A stretch of 59,802 bases of DNA, taken from the sequence record NC_028997.1. One strand, given 5' to 3'. This stretch comes from Enterobacteria phage JenP2. The translations under genes were made by a program, and so were the position numbers. Shown here one piece after another: positions 4,806 to 57,849 of the stretch; position 1 is the first letter of the stretch, and every line of letters begins with the position of its first letter. A model generated the notes under the pieces. That model saw only the letters and a program-made list of their open reading frames with translations, was not told the origin of the DNA and did not search any database.

Positions 4806-5909
4806 ATGTCTAAAATTCTGTCAGCTCCGATGCTTAATTTGCGAGCTACCAATTCAATTCTTCTGTCTGCTGTTCGTCGTGGTGCAATCACTCAACTTGC
4901 AGATGTTATCGTTCCAGAGATCTTCGTACCGTATGTGCAGAACCGCACAACTGAAAAGTCCCGACTGATTCAGTCTGGTGCTATTGAGATTTCTGAGCGT
5001 CTTAACGCCGCATTGATGGGTGAAGGTACTACCTTTAACCAGCGTTTCTTCAAAGACCTGGATCGTGACGAAGAAAACGTTTCAAGTGCAAGCGATTCAA
5101 CCGATTCTACTCCTGGTGGTATCAAATCCGGGCGTGAAATTCAGATCCGTCTGTCCCGTAACCATTCATGGGGTTCTGCGGACCTGCTGGACAGCTTGAT
5201 CTCCCCTGACCCGCTGGATGCTATCATTAATCTAGTGGCAAGCTACCGTCAGAGCCGTCTGCAACGTGCATTCGTTGCAACTGTCGGTGGTGTGTTCGCC
5301 ATGAACGCCGCTGCTCCGACTGGTTCCGGTGATAAGAAGTCTACCCATGTTCAGAACGATATGACCCACGATATCTCTGGTTCATCCTTCGTTGATGGTG
5401 TGACTAACTTCAACCCGGCTGGTGTTATCCTGGCTGCTGGTACTATGGGCGACTCCCTGAACGACCTGTCCATGATGATGGTACACAGTGTGGTTTACCA
5501 GCGTATGCAGCTCATGAACCTGATCGACTTCATCCCGGATGCCCGTGCTGAAGTAATGATCCCGACTTACATGGGCCGTGAAGTTATCGTTGATGATATG
5601 ATGCCTCACGACAACGGTAAGTACGAAACCTGGCTGGTCGGTCGTGGTGCGTTCCAGTTAGGTGTTGGTTCACCGAAAGTTCCTGTTGAAACTGACCGTA
5701 AACCTGCATCCTACAAAGGTGGTGGTTCTGAAATCCTGTATCACCGCTGGGAAAACATCATTCACCCTGTCGGTCACGCATGGGTTGGTACTGCCGCTGA
5801 AGGTGGCCCGGATAACGCCGCTCTGAAGACTGCTACTAACTGGGCTCGTGTATTCCCTGAGCGTAAACAGATTAAGATTGCTCGCCTGATCACTCGCGAA
5901 CACGCTTAA
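4806..5909 (+). CDS. major capsid protein
   Basis: 367 aa from the ATG at 4806 (GGAGA SD upstream); the track start at 4674 would read through the upstream hairpin. Position after the scaffold and a strong terminator downstream fit a highly expressed capsid gene. Confidence 0.8.
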   Translation: MSKILSAPMLNLRATNSILLSAVRRGAITQLADVIVPEIFVPYVQNRTTEKSRLIQSGAIEISERLNAALMGEGTTFNQRFFKDLDRDEENVSSASDSTDSTPGGIKSGREIQIRLSRNHSWGSADLLDSLISPDPLDAIINLVASYRQSRLQRAFVATVGGVFAMNAAAPTGSGDKKSTHVQNDMTHDISGSSFVDGVTNFNPAGVILAAGTMGDSLNDLSMMMVHSVVYQRMQLMNLIDFIPDARAEVMIPTYMGREVIVDDMMPHDNGKYETWLVGRGAFQLGVGSPKVPVETDRKPASYKGGGSEILYHRWENIIHPVGHAWVGTAAEGGPDNAALKTATNWARVFPERKQIKIARLITREHA

Positions 5910-48575: not shown

Positions 48576-48648
48576 GTTATTCTCCTACGATCCATTAGGA
48601 CACACATAGTATATACTGATGGATCGCAGGGGGTTAACCCCCTGCAGA

Positions 48649-50909: not shown

Positions 50910-51501
50910 TGAGCTCTTGCAATTCTTGCTGTAACTTCACATTACCACTATTATTCGTCTGAAGTCTAACGAGGCGTTCCTTGATATGTGCAATGTGGTT
51001 AGTGCTCATCCGTCGCTTCTGTACATCACACCAGCGAACAACACCATCTTCAATATATGCACGACGTGCTTTACCACGCGGGTATCGCATCGGCCGAACT
51101 TCACACTTATCGCCCACCCACTTGAAGCCCAGGATCATAACGGCGTTACCTTCCGTATCAGGACACACGTCAAAGCAACTGTTGAACCCTTTACTGCGCA
51201 TATACTTGTCGAGCGGAATCACGCAATCCACATCCAACAACCAGTACCCGAAGTAAATGTCGACAGTGAACATCATACCCAACATCGGAGCCGACCAGCA
51301 CATATACATCCGCCCGTCATCTAACTTCTTAACCGCATTCGGCCGCAACACGAGGCCAGCCGCCTTCCACGCTTTGACCACATTACTTAGGCTGTCATTA
51401 TGCTGCTCTAATATGGTCACCGCTTTGGCGTACATCTCTTCGTCGTAACCGAACATTTCTTGTACGTGTGCGTTTGTTATTTCAATTTTACGATTGCGCA
51501 T
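50881..51501 (-). CDS. hypothetical protein (first gene of the long minus-strand early/replication block)
   Basis: 206 aa; GGTGAGG SD; lies immediately downstream of the palindrome-rich non-coding hub. Confidence 0.45.
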   Translation of the reverse strand: MRNRKIEITNAHVQEMFGYDEEMYAKAVTILEQHNDSLSNVVKAWKAAGLVLRPNAVKKLDDGRMYMCWSAPMLGMMFTVDIYFGYWLLDVDCVIPLDKYMRSKGFNSCFDVCPDTEGNAVMILGFKWVGDKCEVRPMRYPRGKARRAYIEDGVVRWCDVQKRRMSTNHIAHIKERLVRLQTNNSGNVKLQQELQELIEYIDQFGA

Positions 51502-51559
51502 AACCTCACCCTTGATAATAATAAATCGACTGATTTTGAAATTCAGTTGCCAAGTTTTA

Positions 51560-51680
51560 ATTTATGCAAAGTTTTTGCTATTTGCAACCGTGATATTTTG
51601 CGGTGTTTGTATGTGCAATGTTTTTGCTTTTGCAAAAAATTACAACAGTCTGAAGGTGAAAATTTGCAAATTTATAAAGA
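51560..51680. promoter_or_regulatory. array of TTTGCAAA-type palindromic motifs (operator/promoter-like)
   Basis: At least five copies of a TTGCAA core within ~120 bp, including the perfect palindromes TTTTGCAAAA (~51628) and AAATTTGCAAATTT (51660-51673); AATTTATAAAGAT repeated twice nearby; a TTGCAA-17 bp-TAAATT arrangement on the minus strand. Confidence 0.4.
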
Positions 51681-52473
51681 TCGGTGAAAAAATGTACAAT
51701 TTATAAAGATTCAGCAATATACGAAAACGGCGAAGCGAAGTGTATGAAAAATAAGGGAAATTTTTGAGGATTGGGAGGTTTATAGTGATTTATATTATTT
51801 ATAAAGGGGTCTCGTGGGGTCGTCAGTAGACAACTCAAAAACAAAAAATCTTTATAAAATTTATATAAATACACACATATACACATTTTTACCTTATTTT
51901 TCATGCACTTACCTCCTTTCATTTCGTATATTAAGCGGCAATATACGAGCAATATAAGAAATATTTGTTGCGCAACAACGAGGCGCTCACAAGCTCGCGC
52001 ACGCGCATAATGCGGGCACGCGGTCTAACACAAAAGAAAATTGAATTGCAAGCGATTTTTGCTGAGGTAACTCTCGAAGCGAAAGCGATTTGCGAGTATG
52101 AATTTTTGTAGCCCGAAAACGATTCTATTTTATGGTATAAATGTCGGATTTTTCGGTGAAAGCGAGCTTTTCGGTGAGGTTGGGTGGCTGGGATCGGTGT
52201 AACTGGTAGCCCATAAAGCGAAAATAGCCGCGAAAACGGGGCGCGCAGCGCGATTAAATGGTTGGATCAGTGTAAGGGTGGCGGTGAGGGGCGAAAATGC
52301 CGCAAAATCGCTTACAGGGATGCAGGGAGTGGATCGCTATAAGGGCGTATAAGGCGATTAAATTGGAGTCTATGGTAAGGTATGGAAGAGGATTTAGGCT
52401 CTTAGAGCGCGAATGCCGGAGCTATGGGTGAGGAATATGTGGTCAGCAGGGTAGCGCGGGAGGTGGTGCGGGT

Positions 52474-52512
52474 ACAAAAACGAAAGCGCCCCGTTGGACT
52501 TCAACAGGGCGC
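52474..52512 (-). terminator. rho-independent terminator (minus strand)
   Basis: GCGCCCCGTTG-gactt-CAACAGGGCGC stem (one mismatch) followed on the minus strand by TTTCGTTTTTGT; lies downstream of the gene ending at 52536. Confidence 0.6.
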
Positions 52513-52535
52513 GGATTGTATAATGCAGTTAGAAG

Positions 52536-52784
52536 TTATTTACTAGTTAATAATACCGCCCAGGTATTATCTGGAAGCGTACCAACTCCAAGTATCTTAA
52601 ACTGAAGTGACTTGTTCTGCATGTTGTAGTTGTCGAGTAACTCCTGGGCAGCGGCAGCGGCGTTCGCTTCACCGTTCAGGTTGTAGTCGTTTGCAGTTAT
52701 TGCACACATACCGAGGCCGACTGCTTTGAAGCGCATACCTTTGGATTGAGTCGGTGCCAGTGCTTTGATATGGATAGCGTTCAT
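52536..52784 (-). CDS. hypothetical small protein, family A paralog 1
   Basis: 82 aa; paralogous to 53315..53560 (shared AAAxEL, K(I/E)(L/V)GxG(T/E)LPD motifs). Confidence 0.45.
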   Translation of the reverse strand: MNAIHIKALAPTQSKGMRFKAVGLGMCAITANDYNLNGEANAAAAAQELLDNYNMQNKSLQFKILGVGTLPDNTWAVLLTSK

Positions 52785-52813
52785 ATTATTTATCTCCGTT
52801 ACAATTTTAGACG

Positions 52814-53071
52814 TTAGCAGTTTTTTAACAGGTTGATGAAGCCCGCCAGCGTGGACGCTGTTGCAACCAGGCGGCCCATAGTATGCAGTTCCGCGTGAAC
52901 TGTACCGTCGTCGAATACAGTTAAATAAACGTTAAGACCATTGCAACGGACGCGATATTTGCGCGCGTTATTACCGAAAGTTTCTAGCTCTGCGGTAATA
53001 GTCGCAAGATTAGCTATACGTTTGCCGATAATACGGCGAGTGATAGTGGACTGGTTTAATACTGTAGACAT
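52814..53071 (-). CDS. hypothetical small protein, family B paralog 1
   Basis: 85 aa; paralogous to 54386..54691 (ITRRIIGKRIANL vs ITKRIIGKRLHQL; DDGTVHAE...GRLV vs EDGTVSSY...GRPV). Confidence 0.45.
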   Translation of the reverse strand: MSTVLNQSTITRRIIGKRIANLATITAELETFGNNARKYRVRCNGLNVYLTVFDDGTVHAELHTMGRLVATASTLAGFINLLKNC

Positions 53072-53139
53072 AATAATTTCCTCAGTTAACTATGCGAAGT
53101 GCATATTATTGCCCACGGTTACTATGGGCAATGTATATG

Positions 53140-53304
53140 TCACTCAGCGGTCACATATTCTAACGCTTCTGATAGTGTAGCGAAGTGACCATCACTCATC
53201 AGATTAATAGCGTACTCAAGTTGATCTCGGGTCAGGTTGCGAAACTTGTTGCGGATGTGATAGCAACGACCGCGATAAATAACCTGGAAATAGTTGCGTT
53301 CCAT
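53140..53304 (-). CDS. hypothetical small protein
   Basis: About 54 aa from the Met of MERNYF; the track N-terminal extension would overlap the upstream gene. Confidence 0.3.
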   Translation of the reverse strand: MERNYFQVIYRGRCYHIRNKFRNLTRDQLEYAINLMSDGHFATLSEALEYVTAE

Positions 53305-53314
53305 AATTATCCCC

Positions 53315-53560
53315 TTATGCAACGATGAACGCGTAACCGCTTTGATCTGGAAGCTCGCCGCCGTCAACAATCTCAAACTCAACGCCCGCTTTATCGTTGA
53401 ACTTTTTGATAAGCTCTTCCGCTGCGGCGCGGTGGTTGCCGTAAACGCCCAGATCGTCACGCCATGTGATAGTCAAGGAGCCGTTCCAGCCTGTTGCTTT
53501 TACGCGCGGGTTACGGGTAGCAGTCGGGTTCATGAATTTTGTGATGATAGCTTGAGCCAT
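53315..53560 (-). CDS. hypothetical small protein, family A paralog 2
   Basis: 81 aa; see 52536..52784. Confidence 0.45.
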   Translation of the reverse strand: MAQAIITKFMNPTATRNPRVKATGWNGSLTITWRDDLGVYGNHRAAAEELIKKFNDKAGVEFEIVDGGELPDQSGYAFIVA

Positions 53561-53565
53561 GATAA

Positions 53566-53751
53566 TTACTCCGGTAAAATTACAGTGACGTTAATATTTG
53601 CAATGCGAGCACACTCGCGGAAACCTTTTACATAAGCATCCATTTCATCATAGGATGCGAAAGTTGCGTCCGGGACTGGTCCGTTGTTAATATTCACGCA
53701 ATATTCGTGATCGTCCAGGTCCACCCAACAATACAGAACTATAGTTTCCAT
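53566..53751 (-). CDS. hypothetical small protein
   Basis: About 62 aa from the Met of METIVLY; GGAGGG SD lies inside the upstream micro-ORF. Confidence 0.4.
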   Translation of the reverse strand: METIVLYCWVDLDDHEYCVNINNGPVPDATFASYDEMDAYVKGFRECARIANINVTVILPE

Positions 53752-53752
53752 A

Positions 53753-53827
53753 TTATTTGCCCTCCGTATAGTACAGACCTGCAACTATTGGAGCTCCGAA
53801 CACTAAGAAAGCTAATAAGTAGAACAT
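53753..53827 (-). CDS. 24-aa hydrophobic micro-protein (not in the ORF track)
   Basis: Hand translation MFYLLAFLVFGAPIVAGLYYTEGK; GGAGG SD 8 nt upstream; stop overlaps the next start (TAATATG). Coordinates derived by arithmetic from track frames. Confidence 0.4.
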   Translation of the reverse strand: MFYLLAFLVFGAPIVAGLYYTEGK

Positions 53828-53829
53828 AA

Positions 53830-54324
53830 TTAGTTGCCTCCTTTATTGTTGAGCCCGTTGAATTTACGCCATGCGTAGAATTCAATCGTTGCATTATTAA
53901 TATTCCAACCATTAGCTTTCGCAAGGTCACGGACGTTACCAATAGTTGGCACACCATCAGGTAACATATTATCCAGGGCATTCCAAACGTCTGCGCATTT
54001 ACCTTTAATCGGGCGACGAACCCCGTTGCGCGTTTCGCTGCGCGTTTTGCTCTTGGCGAGAGCGACCGGAGCTTGTTGTGTGGTCACTTCCACGACAGTC
54101 GCTTTATCAGCTTCGACCAGATCGTTAGCCGCCTTATTAACCGCGCCTTCGCTGAACCAGTAGCGGCCACCGTCTTCCAGCGGCTCCTGGTGAATGAAAC
54201 TGTTAGCGGTCGCAGTGTCCACATCCAGAACCTTTTTCAAGGCACGGCGAGCGTTAGACATGTTGGTGAAAAAGCGAGCATCTTTCGCTACGCGAGTGAT
54301 AGTTGCCATTGTAAATATCTCCAT
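53830..54324 (-). CDS. hypothetical protein
   Basis: 164-aa ORF (the true start may be the Met of MATITRV at about 54309). Confidence 0.45.
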   Translation of the reverse strand: MEIFTMATITRVAKDARFFTNMSNARRALKKVLDVDTATANSFIHQEPLEDGGRYWFSEGAVNKAANDLVEADKATVVEVTTQQAPVALAKSKTRSETRNGVRRPIKGKCADVWNALDNMLPDGVPTIGNVRDLAKANGWNINNATIEFYAWRKFNGLNNKGGN

Positions 54325-54385
54325 GTTGTTCTAGCGGATTGCTAGTGGGAGCCCACTGTGACAATGGGCAACCATTAGCACGCTA

Positions 54386-54691
54386 TTATTGTTGAATAGC
54401 TTTAGCTATCATTGTGATGAAGCAGAACACAGACCAAAGGCTATTCGCTTGGCATACTGGGCGACCATACATTACGCTATAAGAGCTGACAGTGCCGTCC
54501 TCGTTAATGCGAATGTATAACGCGGTGCTGGAATATTTTTCGTTGCCCGGGAGCATTACCAGATACTCGTCGAAATCCCAATCCCCGTCGACCTTTTCCG
54601 CTGTAAGGCCCAGCTGATGTAGGCGCTTGCCGATAATGCGCTTAGTAATCTGAGATTGGGACATGGAACGCGGTAAGTAGATAATGGACAT
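54386..54691 (-). CDS. hypothetical small protein, family B paralog 2
   Basis: About 101 aa from the Met of MSIIYLPRS; see 52814..53071. Confidence 0.45.
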   Translation of the reverse strand: MSIIYLPRSMSQSQITKRIIGKRLHQLGLTAEKVDGDWDFDEYLVMLPGNEKYSSTALYIRINEDGTVSSYSVMYGRPVCQANSLWSVFCFITMIAKAIQQ

Positions 54692-54880
54692 AATGCAATC
54701 TCCCTTCGGGTGAGGCGGGCGCGGAACCCGTGTCCCGCTTAAAAACCCCCTTAACCCTACGCAGTTATAGTATGACAACGGGGTATCAGATGCAACTATT
54801 ATCTGCATTATTTTAGAACTTTTTTAGTTGTGTTTCATAATAATAACATCCGGGACTACACGGTAGATGGTGTGCCGGAA

Positions 54881-54945
54881 ATACCAGGTAGCGCGAGCGT
54901 GTCGAACATACCAGGTAACAGCACACGCCGAACATACCAGGTAGC
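54881..54945. repeat. three tandem 26-27 bp direct repeats (iteron-like)
   Basis: Core ATACCAGGTA(G/A)C at ~54881, ~54908 and ~54934 within a ~490-bp non-coding region between divergent gene blocks. Confidence 0.6.
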
Positions 54946-55296
54946 ACATACATAGACAGCATATAGTGGGCAGGTGGATAGTAACAGATGTAATTATACT
55001 GGACTGTACAGTATAGTCATGTAATAGATAGCATACTAATCAAATAAAAAATAATAACGCGTGTAATAATAAACAACGTTACAGTAGAGCGCGCAACAGT
55101 CACATGACGTAACAATCACCTCACTGACGATCACGGGACGTTATAGTAACGCCGCGGGGCGGCTCTTAGATCTCTGCCAAGGATTCATCGTTTGTAGATT
55201 ATCTCGTCGCTAGACACTTTATATCCTCACCTCACCTGCCCTATATTGTTCGTATAAAGTTAATTCTGTATGTAAATACTCGAGAGGAGATCTGTT

Positions 55297-57661: not shown

Positions 57662-57849
57662 AGAAGCCTAAGACTGGTCTGTTCCTTTGTGTTGGTGGAC
57701 CTTTTGACGGTAAGCGTATACGCTTAACAACATCAGATTTGTATCCAAGTTCCTCCGTTTTCTCTGTTCCATCCTATAAAAATGGTGAGAAGGGGAAATA
57801 CGTCTACAATGATGAAATTCGAAATAGTGTAATCTGGAGAACATCGTGA
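57658..57849 (+). CDS. hypothetical protein
   Basis: 63-aa ORF overlapping the upstream stop. Confidence 0.35.
   Translation: MKKPKTGLFLCVGGPFDGKRIRLTTSDLYPSSSVFSVPSYKNGEKGKYVYNDEIRNSVIWRTS

Follow-up and report, generated by a model that had tools for sequence, protein, structure and literature searches.

A conserved non-coding segment between two leftward gene blocks

The sequence of Enterobacteria phage JenP2 (NC_028997.1; 59,802 bp, referred to below as the window) is the complete or near-complete genome of a 9g-like siphovirus (Nonagvirus, Queuovirinae). Here we examine a gene-free segment of about 1 kb at 51502–52535, which we call the hub and which is flanked on both sides by leftward genes, those at 52536–54808 on its right and a block running from 51501 downwards on its left. 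Searched together with its flanks, the hub matched 16 phage records, all Nonagvirus and 88–94% identical, in which it is either unannotated or covered by small 'hypothetical protein' calls that disagree among records. We read the hub as the left boundary region of a direct terminal repeat (DTR) of ~3.4 kb, in which a sequence-specific genome-end site is combined with a transcription boundary, and we give this reading a probability of roughly 60%.

A preliminary description of the segment, made from the letters of the sequence, had reported no open reading frame (ORF) of at least 60 amino acids. Mechanically this is wrong, as three ORFs of 70–83 amino acids overlap the hub (51460–51687, plus strand, 75 aa; 51494–51706, plus strand, 70 aa; 51701–51952, minus strand, 83 aa). 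Among 17 Nonagvirus sequences, however, none of these ORFs keeps its start, frame and stop, and close relatives differ by single-base indels within them; the hub is therefore best called non-coding. Where short ORFs do persist, their substitutions are not enriched at third positions, and they appear to persist merely through conservation of the DNA itself. A minus-strand Shine–Dalgarno–ATG pair at ~51905 was considered as a gene start and rejected, its ORF being broken by 1-nt indels in relatives. The broader claim of the same description, a conserved non-coding regulatory region that lies between two leftward gene blocks and ends at a terminator, was borne out.

The left boundary of a probable terminal repeat falls within the hub

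The preliminary description had proposed operators, an early promoter cluster, a replication origin or a structured RNA for this segment. Its observation is real and non-random, and its interpretation needs replacing: the dominant feature, which it overlooked, is the left boundary of the DTR, a physical genome end. The records of two relatives, HdK1 (MK373794) and HdSG1 (MK373795), are ~3.4 kb longer than those of other Nonagvirus because they include an exact terminal duplication, of 3367 bp and 3363 bp, respectively. The right boundary (R) of this duplication is identical in the two phages (...GCCGCGGGGCGGCTC / TTAGATCTC, the slash marking the boundary), and the left boundaries (L) lie 3 nt apart inside the motif TTTATAAAG (ATTT / ATAAAGGGG in HdK1 and ATTA / TTTATAAAGGGG in HdSG1). 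The unique parts of the two genomes differ in length (60,692 versus 60,232 bp), yet their repeat boundaries are at most 3 nt apart.

In JenP2, homology places the start of the repeat at 51801 (from HdK1) or 51798 (from HdSG1), within the third copy of TTTATAAAG. Both boundary sequences, identical to those of HdK1 and HdSG1, are unchanged in JenP2, and we therefore infer a DTR of 3365 bp at 51801–55165, present as a single copy in the assembly, with its left boundary in the middle of the hub. Homology and the re-analysis of published data given below together show L at 51798–51801, so that 51801–52535 is the first ~735 bp of virion DNA and 51502–51800 the last unique sequence before the right-hand copy of the repeat. 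That a physical genome end lies within the hub in JenP2 itself is a part of the reading in which we have good confidence. In the literature that we found on the genus, the left end is not described, and neither a transcriptome nor a mapped origin is reported.

Published data on phage 9g are better explained by fixed ends

The right boundary of the repeat has an experimental counterpart in phage 9g, a member of the same genus. JenP2 position 55165 is homologous to 9g nt 28243, where a terminase cut was mapped by run-off sequencing beside two 21-bp repeats (Tsai et al. 2017, PMC5567051) and where 114 reads start or end, compared with 85 reads that span the site (Kulikov et al. 2014, PMC4276943). 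Because its homologue is a mapped cut, the right boundary is more than an assembly convention. The 9g homologue of L is nt 25163, which gives a repeat of 3081 bp; Tsai et al. estimated a terminal redundancy of ~3.0–3.2 kb and proposed headful packaging with imprecise far ends (PMC5567051). Thus the right end of 9g was already known, whereas the hub and the left end are not described in the 9g papers.

We recomputed the DraI digest of 9g with an HdK1-type left end at nt 25163. No DraI site falls inside the repeat; the fragment spanning the site would be 13,517 bp, and the end fragments would be 8363 bp (right) and 8235 bp (left). In the published gel the predicted 13.5-kb fragment is absent and an '8.4-kb doublet' is present (PMC5567051). 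The two end fragments match this doublet, and the 5154-bp fragment expected from a single cut is missing from the gel. If packaging were headful, the 13.5-kb fragment should persist without a second discrete end fragment, and the gel shows the opposite. A left end in the hub explains the DraI pattern, which argues for fixed ends over headful packaging. The cut fraction of 33–50% reported by Tsai et al. (PMC5567051) and the ratio of 114 to 85 reads fit one cut and one uncut internal copy of R per molecule. Compared with the original papers, in which the right end alone was mapped and described as a headful 'pac' site, the recomputed digest therefore fits fixed ends better.

The two boundaries share an oriented box

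Around L, short repeats are stacked in a fixed order. Two tandem 29-bp units of the form GGTGA(A/G)AA..TG.A.A.TTTATAAAGAT lie on the plus strand at 51655–51710 (Tandem Repeats Finder: period 29, 2.0 copies, 85% matches), and both are kept in all 17 relatives; a third, degenerate unit of the same type (51782–51806) ends at the genome-end cut site. The palindromic TTTATAAA at 51798–51805 holds the inferred L and is where the HdK1 and HdSG1 duplications begin. Four of the five copies of TTTATAAA in the whole window cluster here (51671, 51700, 51798 and 51851), the first two within the 29-bp tandem repeat, the third containing the L cut and the fourth being its inverted partner. The last two belong to an inverted repeat at 51788–51870, with arms at 51788–51806 and 51850–51870 and a 43-nt spacer, in which the L cut falls in the outer arm and the spacer carries two GGGGTC repeats (51806 and 51816) and the L box described next. 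In the haplotype represented by SE1 and FritzHoffmann, the arms are perfect inverted copies of each other over 16 bp (TATAAATTTTATAAAG / CTTTATAAAATTTATA).

The L box is the 12-mer CGTCAGTAGACA (51821–51832, plus strand), which starts 21 nt inside the left end and is part of a 13-bp sequence, TCGTCA(G/C)TAGACA. In the Nonagvirus loci examined that span both boundaries (HdK1 excepted, and including 28 kb of 9g), this 13-mer occurs only ~21 bp to the right of L and 39 bp to the right of R, always on the plus strand, apart from one extra copy beside a second TTTATAAA in SE1, PD328 and SP8. In these three phages and in two IMG/VR contigs, the sequence corresponding to 51961–52030 is replaced by a second L-like module, TTTATAAATTTGGCTCGTCAGTAGACA. 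Located ~160 bp inside the first and homologous in position to ~51955–51990, this second module of SE1, PD328 and SP8 (TTTATAAA plus CTCGTCAGTAGACA) could be an alternative cut site.

On the other side of the repeat, two 21-bp pac repeats with the core SRYCRCGGGRCG (55124–55165, plus strand) end at the R cut, 55165/55166, which is the site mapped in 9g (PMC5567051, PMC4276943). Around R, 15 genomes show no variation between about −60 and +22. The R box at 55205–55216 (plus strand) starts 40 nt to the right of the cut and reads CGTCGCTAGACA in JenP2 and CGTCACTAGACA in most relatives; phages of a Klebsiella group carry an exact TCGTCAGTAGACAA in the R flank. It took a targeted search to bring out the shared box, and a scan of viral contigs with a 14-mer version of it returned mostly chance matches. 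No other internal evidence for L as a processing site related to R is as strong as this oriented box, which both boundaries have in common.

A second family of boxes, GGTGARR, also occurs near both boundaries. In the hub it occurs six times on the plus strand (51655, 51683, 52155, 52173, 52283 and 52427) and not at all on the minus strand, compared with 0.3 expected. Inverted copies flank R, at 55116 (as TCACC, left of R), 55225 and 55230; the last two lie in GGTGAGGTGAGG (55225–55236, minus strand), an inverted copy of the GGTGAGG boxes of the hub (minus-strand GGTGARR within 100 bp of R, P ~3e-3). The inverted boxes on the R side are kept in both lineages as (A)TCACCTCAC. In the Klebsiella-group phage vB_Kpn2-P2, the relative position of the GGTGARR boxes is taken by seven iteron-like GCTAA[CT] boxes with a 14.6-bp period (hub positions ~786–874), and the L-like block is bordered by boxes of the type CTGTAGTA in inverted orientation. 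That the position is conserved while the boxes differ between lineages suggests that a co-evolving protein binds there, for which the small terminase subunit, an initiator or another protein would be candidates.

These elements suggest how the left end may be formed. L would be a sequence-specific processing site within the palindromic TTTATAAA, in the outer arm of the inverted repeat, preceded by two further direct TTTATAAAG units and followed by the 13-bp box at +21, as R is followed by it at +39. The terminase or an accessory nuclease would recognise this shared TCGTCASTAGACA box at both repeat boundaries, and the GGTGARR arrays, in opposed orientation near L and R, could serve as auxiliary binding sites. 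The near-invariant 135 bp inside L and a conserved core further right would form part of a signal for end formation or end function. Whether the conserved elements of the hub do act in end formation we regard as an even bet.

The hub is more conserved than the genes beside it

Segments of the hub have a mean pairwise identity of 0.91–0.97 among the 17 Nonagvirus sequences, compared with 0.84, 0.73 and 0.71 at the third codon positions of three flanking genes; the hub is thus under selection as DNA. The adjoining 82-aa protein is only ~60% identical between JenP2 and 9g, SE1 or SP8, and the neighbouring hub has ~89% nucleotide identity. More generally, the genes within the DTR (52536–54808; ~60% amino acid identity among relatives) vary far more than the non-coding hub that they adjoin. 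They encode only small proteins of unknown function and include two paralogue pairs, with matches to PHROG 3199 at 52536–52784 and 53315–53560 and to PHROG 13865 at 52814–53071 and 54386–54808.

From left to right, the hub begins with an AT-rich segment at 51502–51800 (GC 30%; mean identity 0.91 in 17 genomes) on the unique-sequence side of the repeat boundary. This segment, upstream of the leftward gene starting at 51501, bears TGCAA-core motifs and contains a direct repeat with a spacing of 49 bp (51554–51582 and 51603–51631). Its last 30 bp, at 51771–51800 and directly left of 51801, are hypervariable (identity 0.78). The most conserved block of all, 51801–51935, is AT-rich with A-tracts (mean identity 0.966 in 17 genomes) and corresponds to the first 135 bp of the packaged molecule, as judged from the inferred left end. 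It is followed by a hypervariable island at 51961–52030 with three haplotypes (mean identity 0.69, minimum 0.43), which in JenP2 contains the palindrome TTGTTGCGCAACAA (51965–51978). Beyond the island lies a core at 52031–52150 (identity 0.94 within Nonagvirus), with two GCAAGCGAWWT-like repeats ~33 bp apart (52047 and 52080) and the invariant 18-mer AAAACGATTCTATTTTAT (52116–52133).

The core is also conserved across lineages. It has blocks of 14–18 identical bases in common with the Klebsiella phages vB_Kpn2-P2 and K9PH25C2 and with phage Ec1-ASingh, in which the flanking protein is just 61–63% identical. These three phages are laid out in the same way, the homologous small gene being followed by a terminator, then by a gap of ~1.25 kb free of genes and then by the next gene block. 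Their gap aligns blockwise with the hub, with AAAACGATTCTATTTTAT and GATTGCAAGCGATT invariant and TGTATAATGCAGTTAGA near-invariant (one substitution, in K9PH25C2). A scan of viral contigs with the 18-mer retrieved five further Nonagvirus-like contigs and one of the Klebsiella type, none of which ends at L. Distant blastn searches with the hub and with the neighbourhoods of L and R returned the 16 Nonagvirus records only, with no Seuratvirus homologue at the DNA level. The hub is most likely a composite cis-acting region at the junction between the unique genome and the DTR.

A transcription layer at the same place

The leftward DTR operon (54808 to 52536) runs into an intrinsic terminator at 52486–52512 on the minus strand, an 11-pair stem with eight G–C pairs followed by a T-run to ~52476; the terminator that the preliminary description had placed at the hub's right end is thus present. 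An RNAalifold alignment of the two lineages retains nine pairs, two of them with compensatory changes, and the hairpin is the strongest conserved-structure window of the hub (z = −13). Structure and covariation together show that the DTR operon ends here.

Directly beyond the terminator lies a stretch that is G-rich on the plus strand (52151–52485; 128 G and 49 C over 335 nt) and contains the highest (G−C) 200-nt window of the genome. It also bears GCGAW/AAGCGA repeats, and its G-rich skew is kept in the Klebsiella group. Its GC content of 53%, compared with 30% in the left part of the hub, agrees with the GC-richer right stretch noted in the preliminary description. Read leftward from 52485 to 52151, it is the only sense stretch with C ≥33% and G ≤15% in the whole leftward unit (25–55 kb), and it starts immediately after the intrinsic terminator. 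By composition this untranslated RNA is rut-like (C-rich and G-poor, with C = 128 and G = 49 over 335 nt), and in read-through transcripts it would be a likely Rho-loading backup terminator. Because composition alone cannot explain conservation at the nucleotide level, we regard Rho loading as just one of several functions. On the unique side, the AT-rich segment may then restart transcription of the next leftward gene block. In JenP1, a plus-strand HNH homing endonuclease gene (5042–5515 of its locus) replaces the sequence corresponding to ~52308–52535.

A rightward promoter-like sequence, TGGACT-18-TATAAT (52495–52524, plus strand; 10/12), overlaps the terminator and is antisense to the DTR genes. 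Phage vB_Kpn2-P2 has an equivalent TGGATA-18-TATAAT in the corresponding position (5288–5259), and TGTATAATGCAGTTAGA is near-invariant at this site across lineages. On the minus strand, a search for sigma-70 consensus matches of at least 9/12 found none upstream of the gene at 51501 and none in the homologous region of the Klebsiella phage. Two hand-picked candidates, TTGTAC-17-TATAAA and TTGCAA-18-TACAAA, reach at most 8/12 and are not claimed. An early promoter cluster in the hub is plausible but unproven, and a promoter role of the AT-rich segment, with weak leftward promoters, is possible.

Two further features touch on this layer. The ribosome-binding site (RBS) of the gene at 51501 is GGTGAGG (51504–51510, minus strand), a heptamer of which the G-rich segment has three copies on the other strand; leftward read-through RNA would consequently carry three sequences complementary to this RBS. 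In addition, CGCTCTAA (52402–52409, minus strand) matches seven of the eight bases of the lambda boxA consensus, CGCTCTTA; no boxB-like hairpin follows it, so the match may be due to chance.

Motif content of the hub

The motifs listed in the preliminary description are present and are commoner than local composition predicts. They include the perfect 14-bp palindromes AAATTTGCAAATTT (51660–51673) and TTGTTGCGCAACAA (51965–51978), AATTTATAAAGAT at 51669 and 51698, GGTGAGG at 52173, 52283 and 52427, CGATTAAAT at 52251 and 52355, and GCGAAA, of which the hub has four copies. One count needs adjusting: of the five TTGCAA-core motifs claimed for the left part, exact TTGCAA accounts for three (with one more at 52046), and five is the count of the shorter core TGCAA. 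Expectations were taken from first-order Markov simulations of the local sequence, and the resulting P values are indicative only, because the motifs were picked after inspection of the sequence. With that limit, we observed TTTATAAA four times versus 0.13 expected, GGTGAGG three times versus 0.05, CGATTAAAT twice versus 0.01, AAGCGA five times versus 0.46 and TGCAA five times versus 1.0 (P = 0.003); perfect palindromes of at least 12 bp number five versus 0.63 (P = 0.01). Repeats of GCAATATACGA (51714, 51938 and 51949) were dropped from consideration, as they are not conserved in relatives.

Other signals place the hub in the context of the window. The longest perfect palindromes lie outside it, GCAGGGGGTTAACCCCCTGC (20 bp, 48626–48645), which sits in the gap that follows the gene for the primase-helicase, and TAAGCGTATACGCTTA (16 bp, 57711–57726). 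Chi sites are absent from the hub and occur once per orientation in the whole window. DnaA boxes (TTWTNCACA) are likewise absent from the hub, with two in the whole window versus 7.8 expected. The minimum of cumulative GC skew, 51511, coincides with the hub's left edge and not with the divergent promoter region at ~55.0–55.3 kb, and its maximum, 25521, is where the two gene blocks converge beside the single tRNA-Ala gene (25835–25908).

Weighing the readings

Several points weigh against a genome-end site in the hub. The ends of JenP2 are derived from relatives and not from JenP2 reads or virion DNA, and the publication of HdK1 and HdSG1 gives no account of how the repeats were established. 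A read-start or run-off signal at L is reported in neither 9g study, Kulikov et al. (PMC4276943) describing a peak at R only, and for that reason L may be less sharp than R; the primer walk of Tsai et al. began at 25175, 12 nt inside L, and so was unable to detect it. Headful packaging was the interpretation preferred by those who mapped the 9g cut (PMC5567051). At the sequence level, the R box of JenP2 has two mismatches, the R flank of HdK1 has diverged, and the contexts of L and R share the box and GGTGA-type motifs and nothing more. Local alignment of L with R does not rise above shuffled sequences in direct orientation and is marginal in inverted orientation (score 25 versus a shuffle mean of 18.2 and maximum of 27). 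Finally, JenP1 lacks ~230 bp of the G-rich part together with the terminator, so that this part is dispensable.

In a rival account, the hub is a transcription boundary and nothing else, composed of an insulator, terminators and early or middle promoters, while packaging proceeds by the headful mechanism from a pac site at 55165 and leaves imprecise left ends without any site in the hub. The covariation of the terminator, a C-rich and G-poor sense transcript unique in the leftward unit, and −35-like TTGCAA and TATAAA elements in the AT-rich segment upstream of the next gene all agree with such a boundary, as do the published headful interpretation and the lack of a reported L signal in the 9g reads. 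The headful part of the idea conflicts with the DraI gel and with the repeat boundaries of HdK1 and HdSG1, which fall within 3 nt of each other despite the different unique lengths; the part that confines the hub to transcription does not account for the same 13-bp box to the right of both boundaries, identities of 0.92–0.97 and cross-lineage blocks that go beyond base composition. On balance, we find this account distinctly unlikely. A replication origin, perhaps in addition to the terminus, is a doubtful but somewhat better candidate. The AT-rich segment would be its unwinding element and the GGTGARR and AAGCGA repeats its initiator sites; in a variant, a rightward transcript from promoter-like sequences at 51671–51700 or 51771–51798 would form a G-rich R-loop that primes synthesis. 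G-rich R-loop priming operates at the T4 and ColE1 origins. The extremes of cumulative GC skew (minimum 51511, maximum 25521) point in this direction, although skew largely follows gene orientation. The zero skew of the leftward DTR genes, compared with −0.1 to −0.2 in other leftward genes, points the same way. The placement of all repeated boxes on one strand, the presence of an AT-rich segment and the seven periodic GCTAA[CT] boxes of the Klebsiella-group hub are also consistent with an origin. The plus-strand promoter-like sites upstream would suit the R-loop variant, but they reach only 9/12 and have a weaker −10 (CACAAT) in the 16 relatives. The absence of DnaA boxes from the hub argues against an origin, as does a primase-helicase without an origin-binding domain recognised in Pfam.

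Two other proposals of the preliminary description fare worse. If the G-rich half encoded a structured non-coding RNA of ~0.5–0.7 kb, high conservation without coding potential and the strong strand asymmetry would be expected, and both are seen. Yet a scan of the hub with Rfam covariance models gave no match at the gathering threshold or at E ≤10, folding z-scores are −1.2 on the plus strand and −2.5 on the minus strand (terminator included), and in 120-nt alifold windows across the two lineages the terminator alone stands out as conserved and covarying; moreover, ~230 bp of this half are replaced by the HNH gene in JenP1. Of all the readings, we consider this one the least probable. Operators for a phage helix–turn–helix (HTH) regulator of early promoters had been suggested by the palindromes, and two perfect 14-bp palindromes in 1 kb, upstream of an operon, do exceed the 0.16 expected. 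However, AAATTTGCAAATTT is perfect in JenP2 only, and TTGTTGCGCAACAA, which lies in the hypervariable island, is perfect in JenP2 and HdK1; 12 of 17 genomes retain a 10-bp core of it, and the other five lack it. Related copies of the palindromes elsewhere are not above chance. Since the 14-bp palindromes are not conserved as palindromes and have no extra copies above chance, the operator candidate is weak, and we think it highly improbable.

Parallels in other phages

Among described regions, the nearest to the hub in layout is Repeat Region 3 of phage T5, a 1.2-kb untranslated region rich in repeats and palindromes that straddles the terminal-repeat boundary by 270 bp, is more strongly conserved than the repeat's ORFs and has HNH insertions nearby (Davison, bioRxiv 10.1101/866236). 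The hub is also long, conserved, untranslated and repeat-rich and straddles the DTR boundary, and the HNH insertion of JenP1 is a further parallel. It differs in having no sequence similarity to the T5 region and in a repeat of 3.4 kb versus 10 kb. The parallel raises a T5-like injection stop, in which the R end would enter the cell first, the DTR genes would be the first to enter and be expressed, and the hub, located at the inner edge of that repeat, would pause transfer until their products act. Besides the shared layout, the small proteins of unknown function, including paralogue pairs, that the DTR encodes are in keeping with this. The resemblance is positional only, though, and two-step transfer has never been reported for 9g-like phages. 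As the hub lacks the paired DnaA boxes on which the T5 proposal is built, we do not class it among injection stop signals, and we consider such a role very unlikely.

Other systems help to place the genome-end reading. At the concatemer junction of T7 and T3, the terminal repeat is flanked by arrays of short repeats, and its duplication has been modelled through hairpins or staggered nicks. JenP2 would resemble T7 and T3 in its exact terminal repeats and sequence-specific ends, and it has degenerate short and inverted repeats that adjoin the boundary. Unlike T7, in which the repeat is 160 bp and the packaging signals were defined genetically, JenP2 would have a repeat 20 times longer, with putative signals deduced from sequence. 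The lambda cos site consists of cosQ, cosN and cosB, and the SPP1 pac site of pacL, pacC and pacR. Like these, L has a cut site with partial two-fold symmetry, flanking arrays of boxes and a recognition element on one fixed side; whereas lambda and SPP1 each use a single site in the genome, JenP2-like phages would have two different ones, separated by 3.4 kb and with a box in common, and there is no evidence for cohesive ends or permutation in the JenP2 group.

A more speculative extension, which we regard as unlikely, would have L and R processed as one coordinated unit. The shared box and the opposed GGTGAGG arrays would let a terminase complex join L and R across 3.4 kb, staggered cuts would be made, and the repeat would then be duplicated by strand-displacement synthesis, the hub being one half of a bipartite packaging site. 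In a second speculative reading, the hub of this 60-kb siphovirus would also work as a pause or entry checkpoint similar to that of T5.

Implications

Nothing described here lies outside known phage biology. If the hub is the left boundary region of the DTR, as we propose, the published 'headful' assignment for 9g would be corrected, and annotation would be affected in its start coordinates and in the true genome length, which would be ~63 kb. Packaging mode bears on transduction risk and is thus relevant to phage engineering and therapy, and the conserved 1-kb cis-element would be one to leave intact when 9g-like phages are engineered. Little is understood so far about how exact terminal repeats of kilobase length, such as those of T5 and SPO1, are generated. 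Phages of the 9g type are small and easily grown, and one of their ends has already been mapped; if the hub holds a second sequence-specific end that shares the recognition box of R, they would offer a tractable model of DTR formation.

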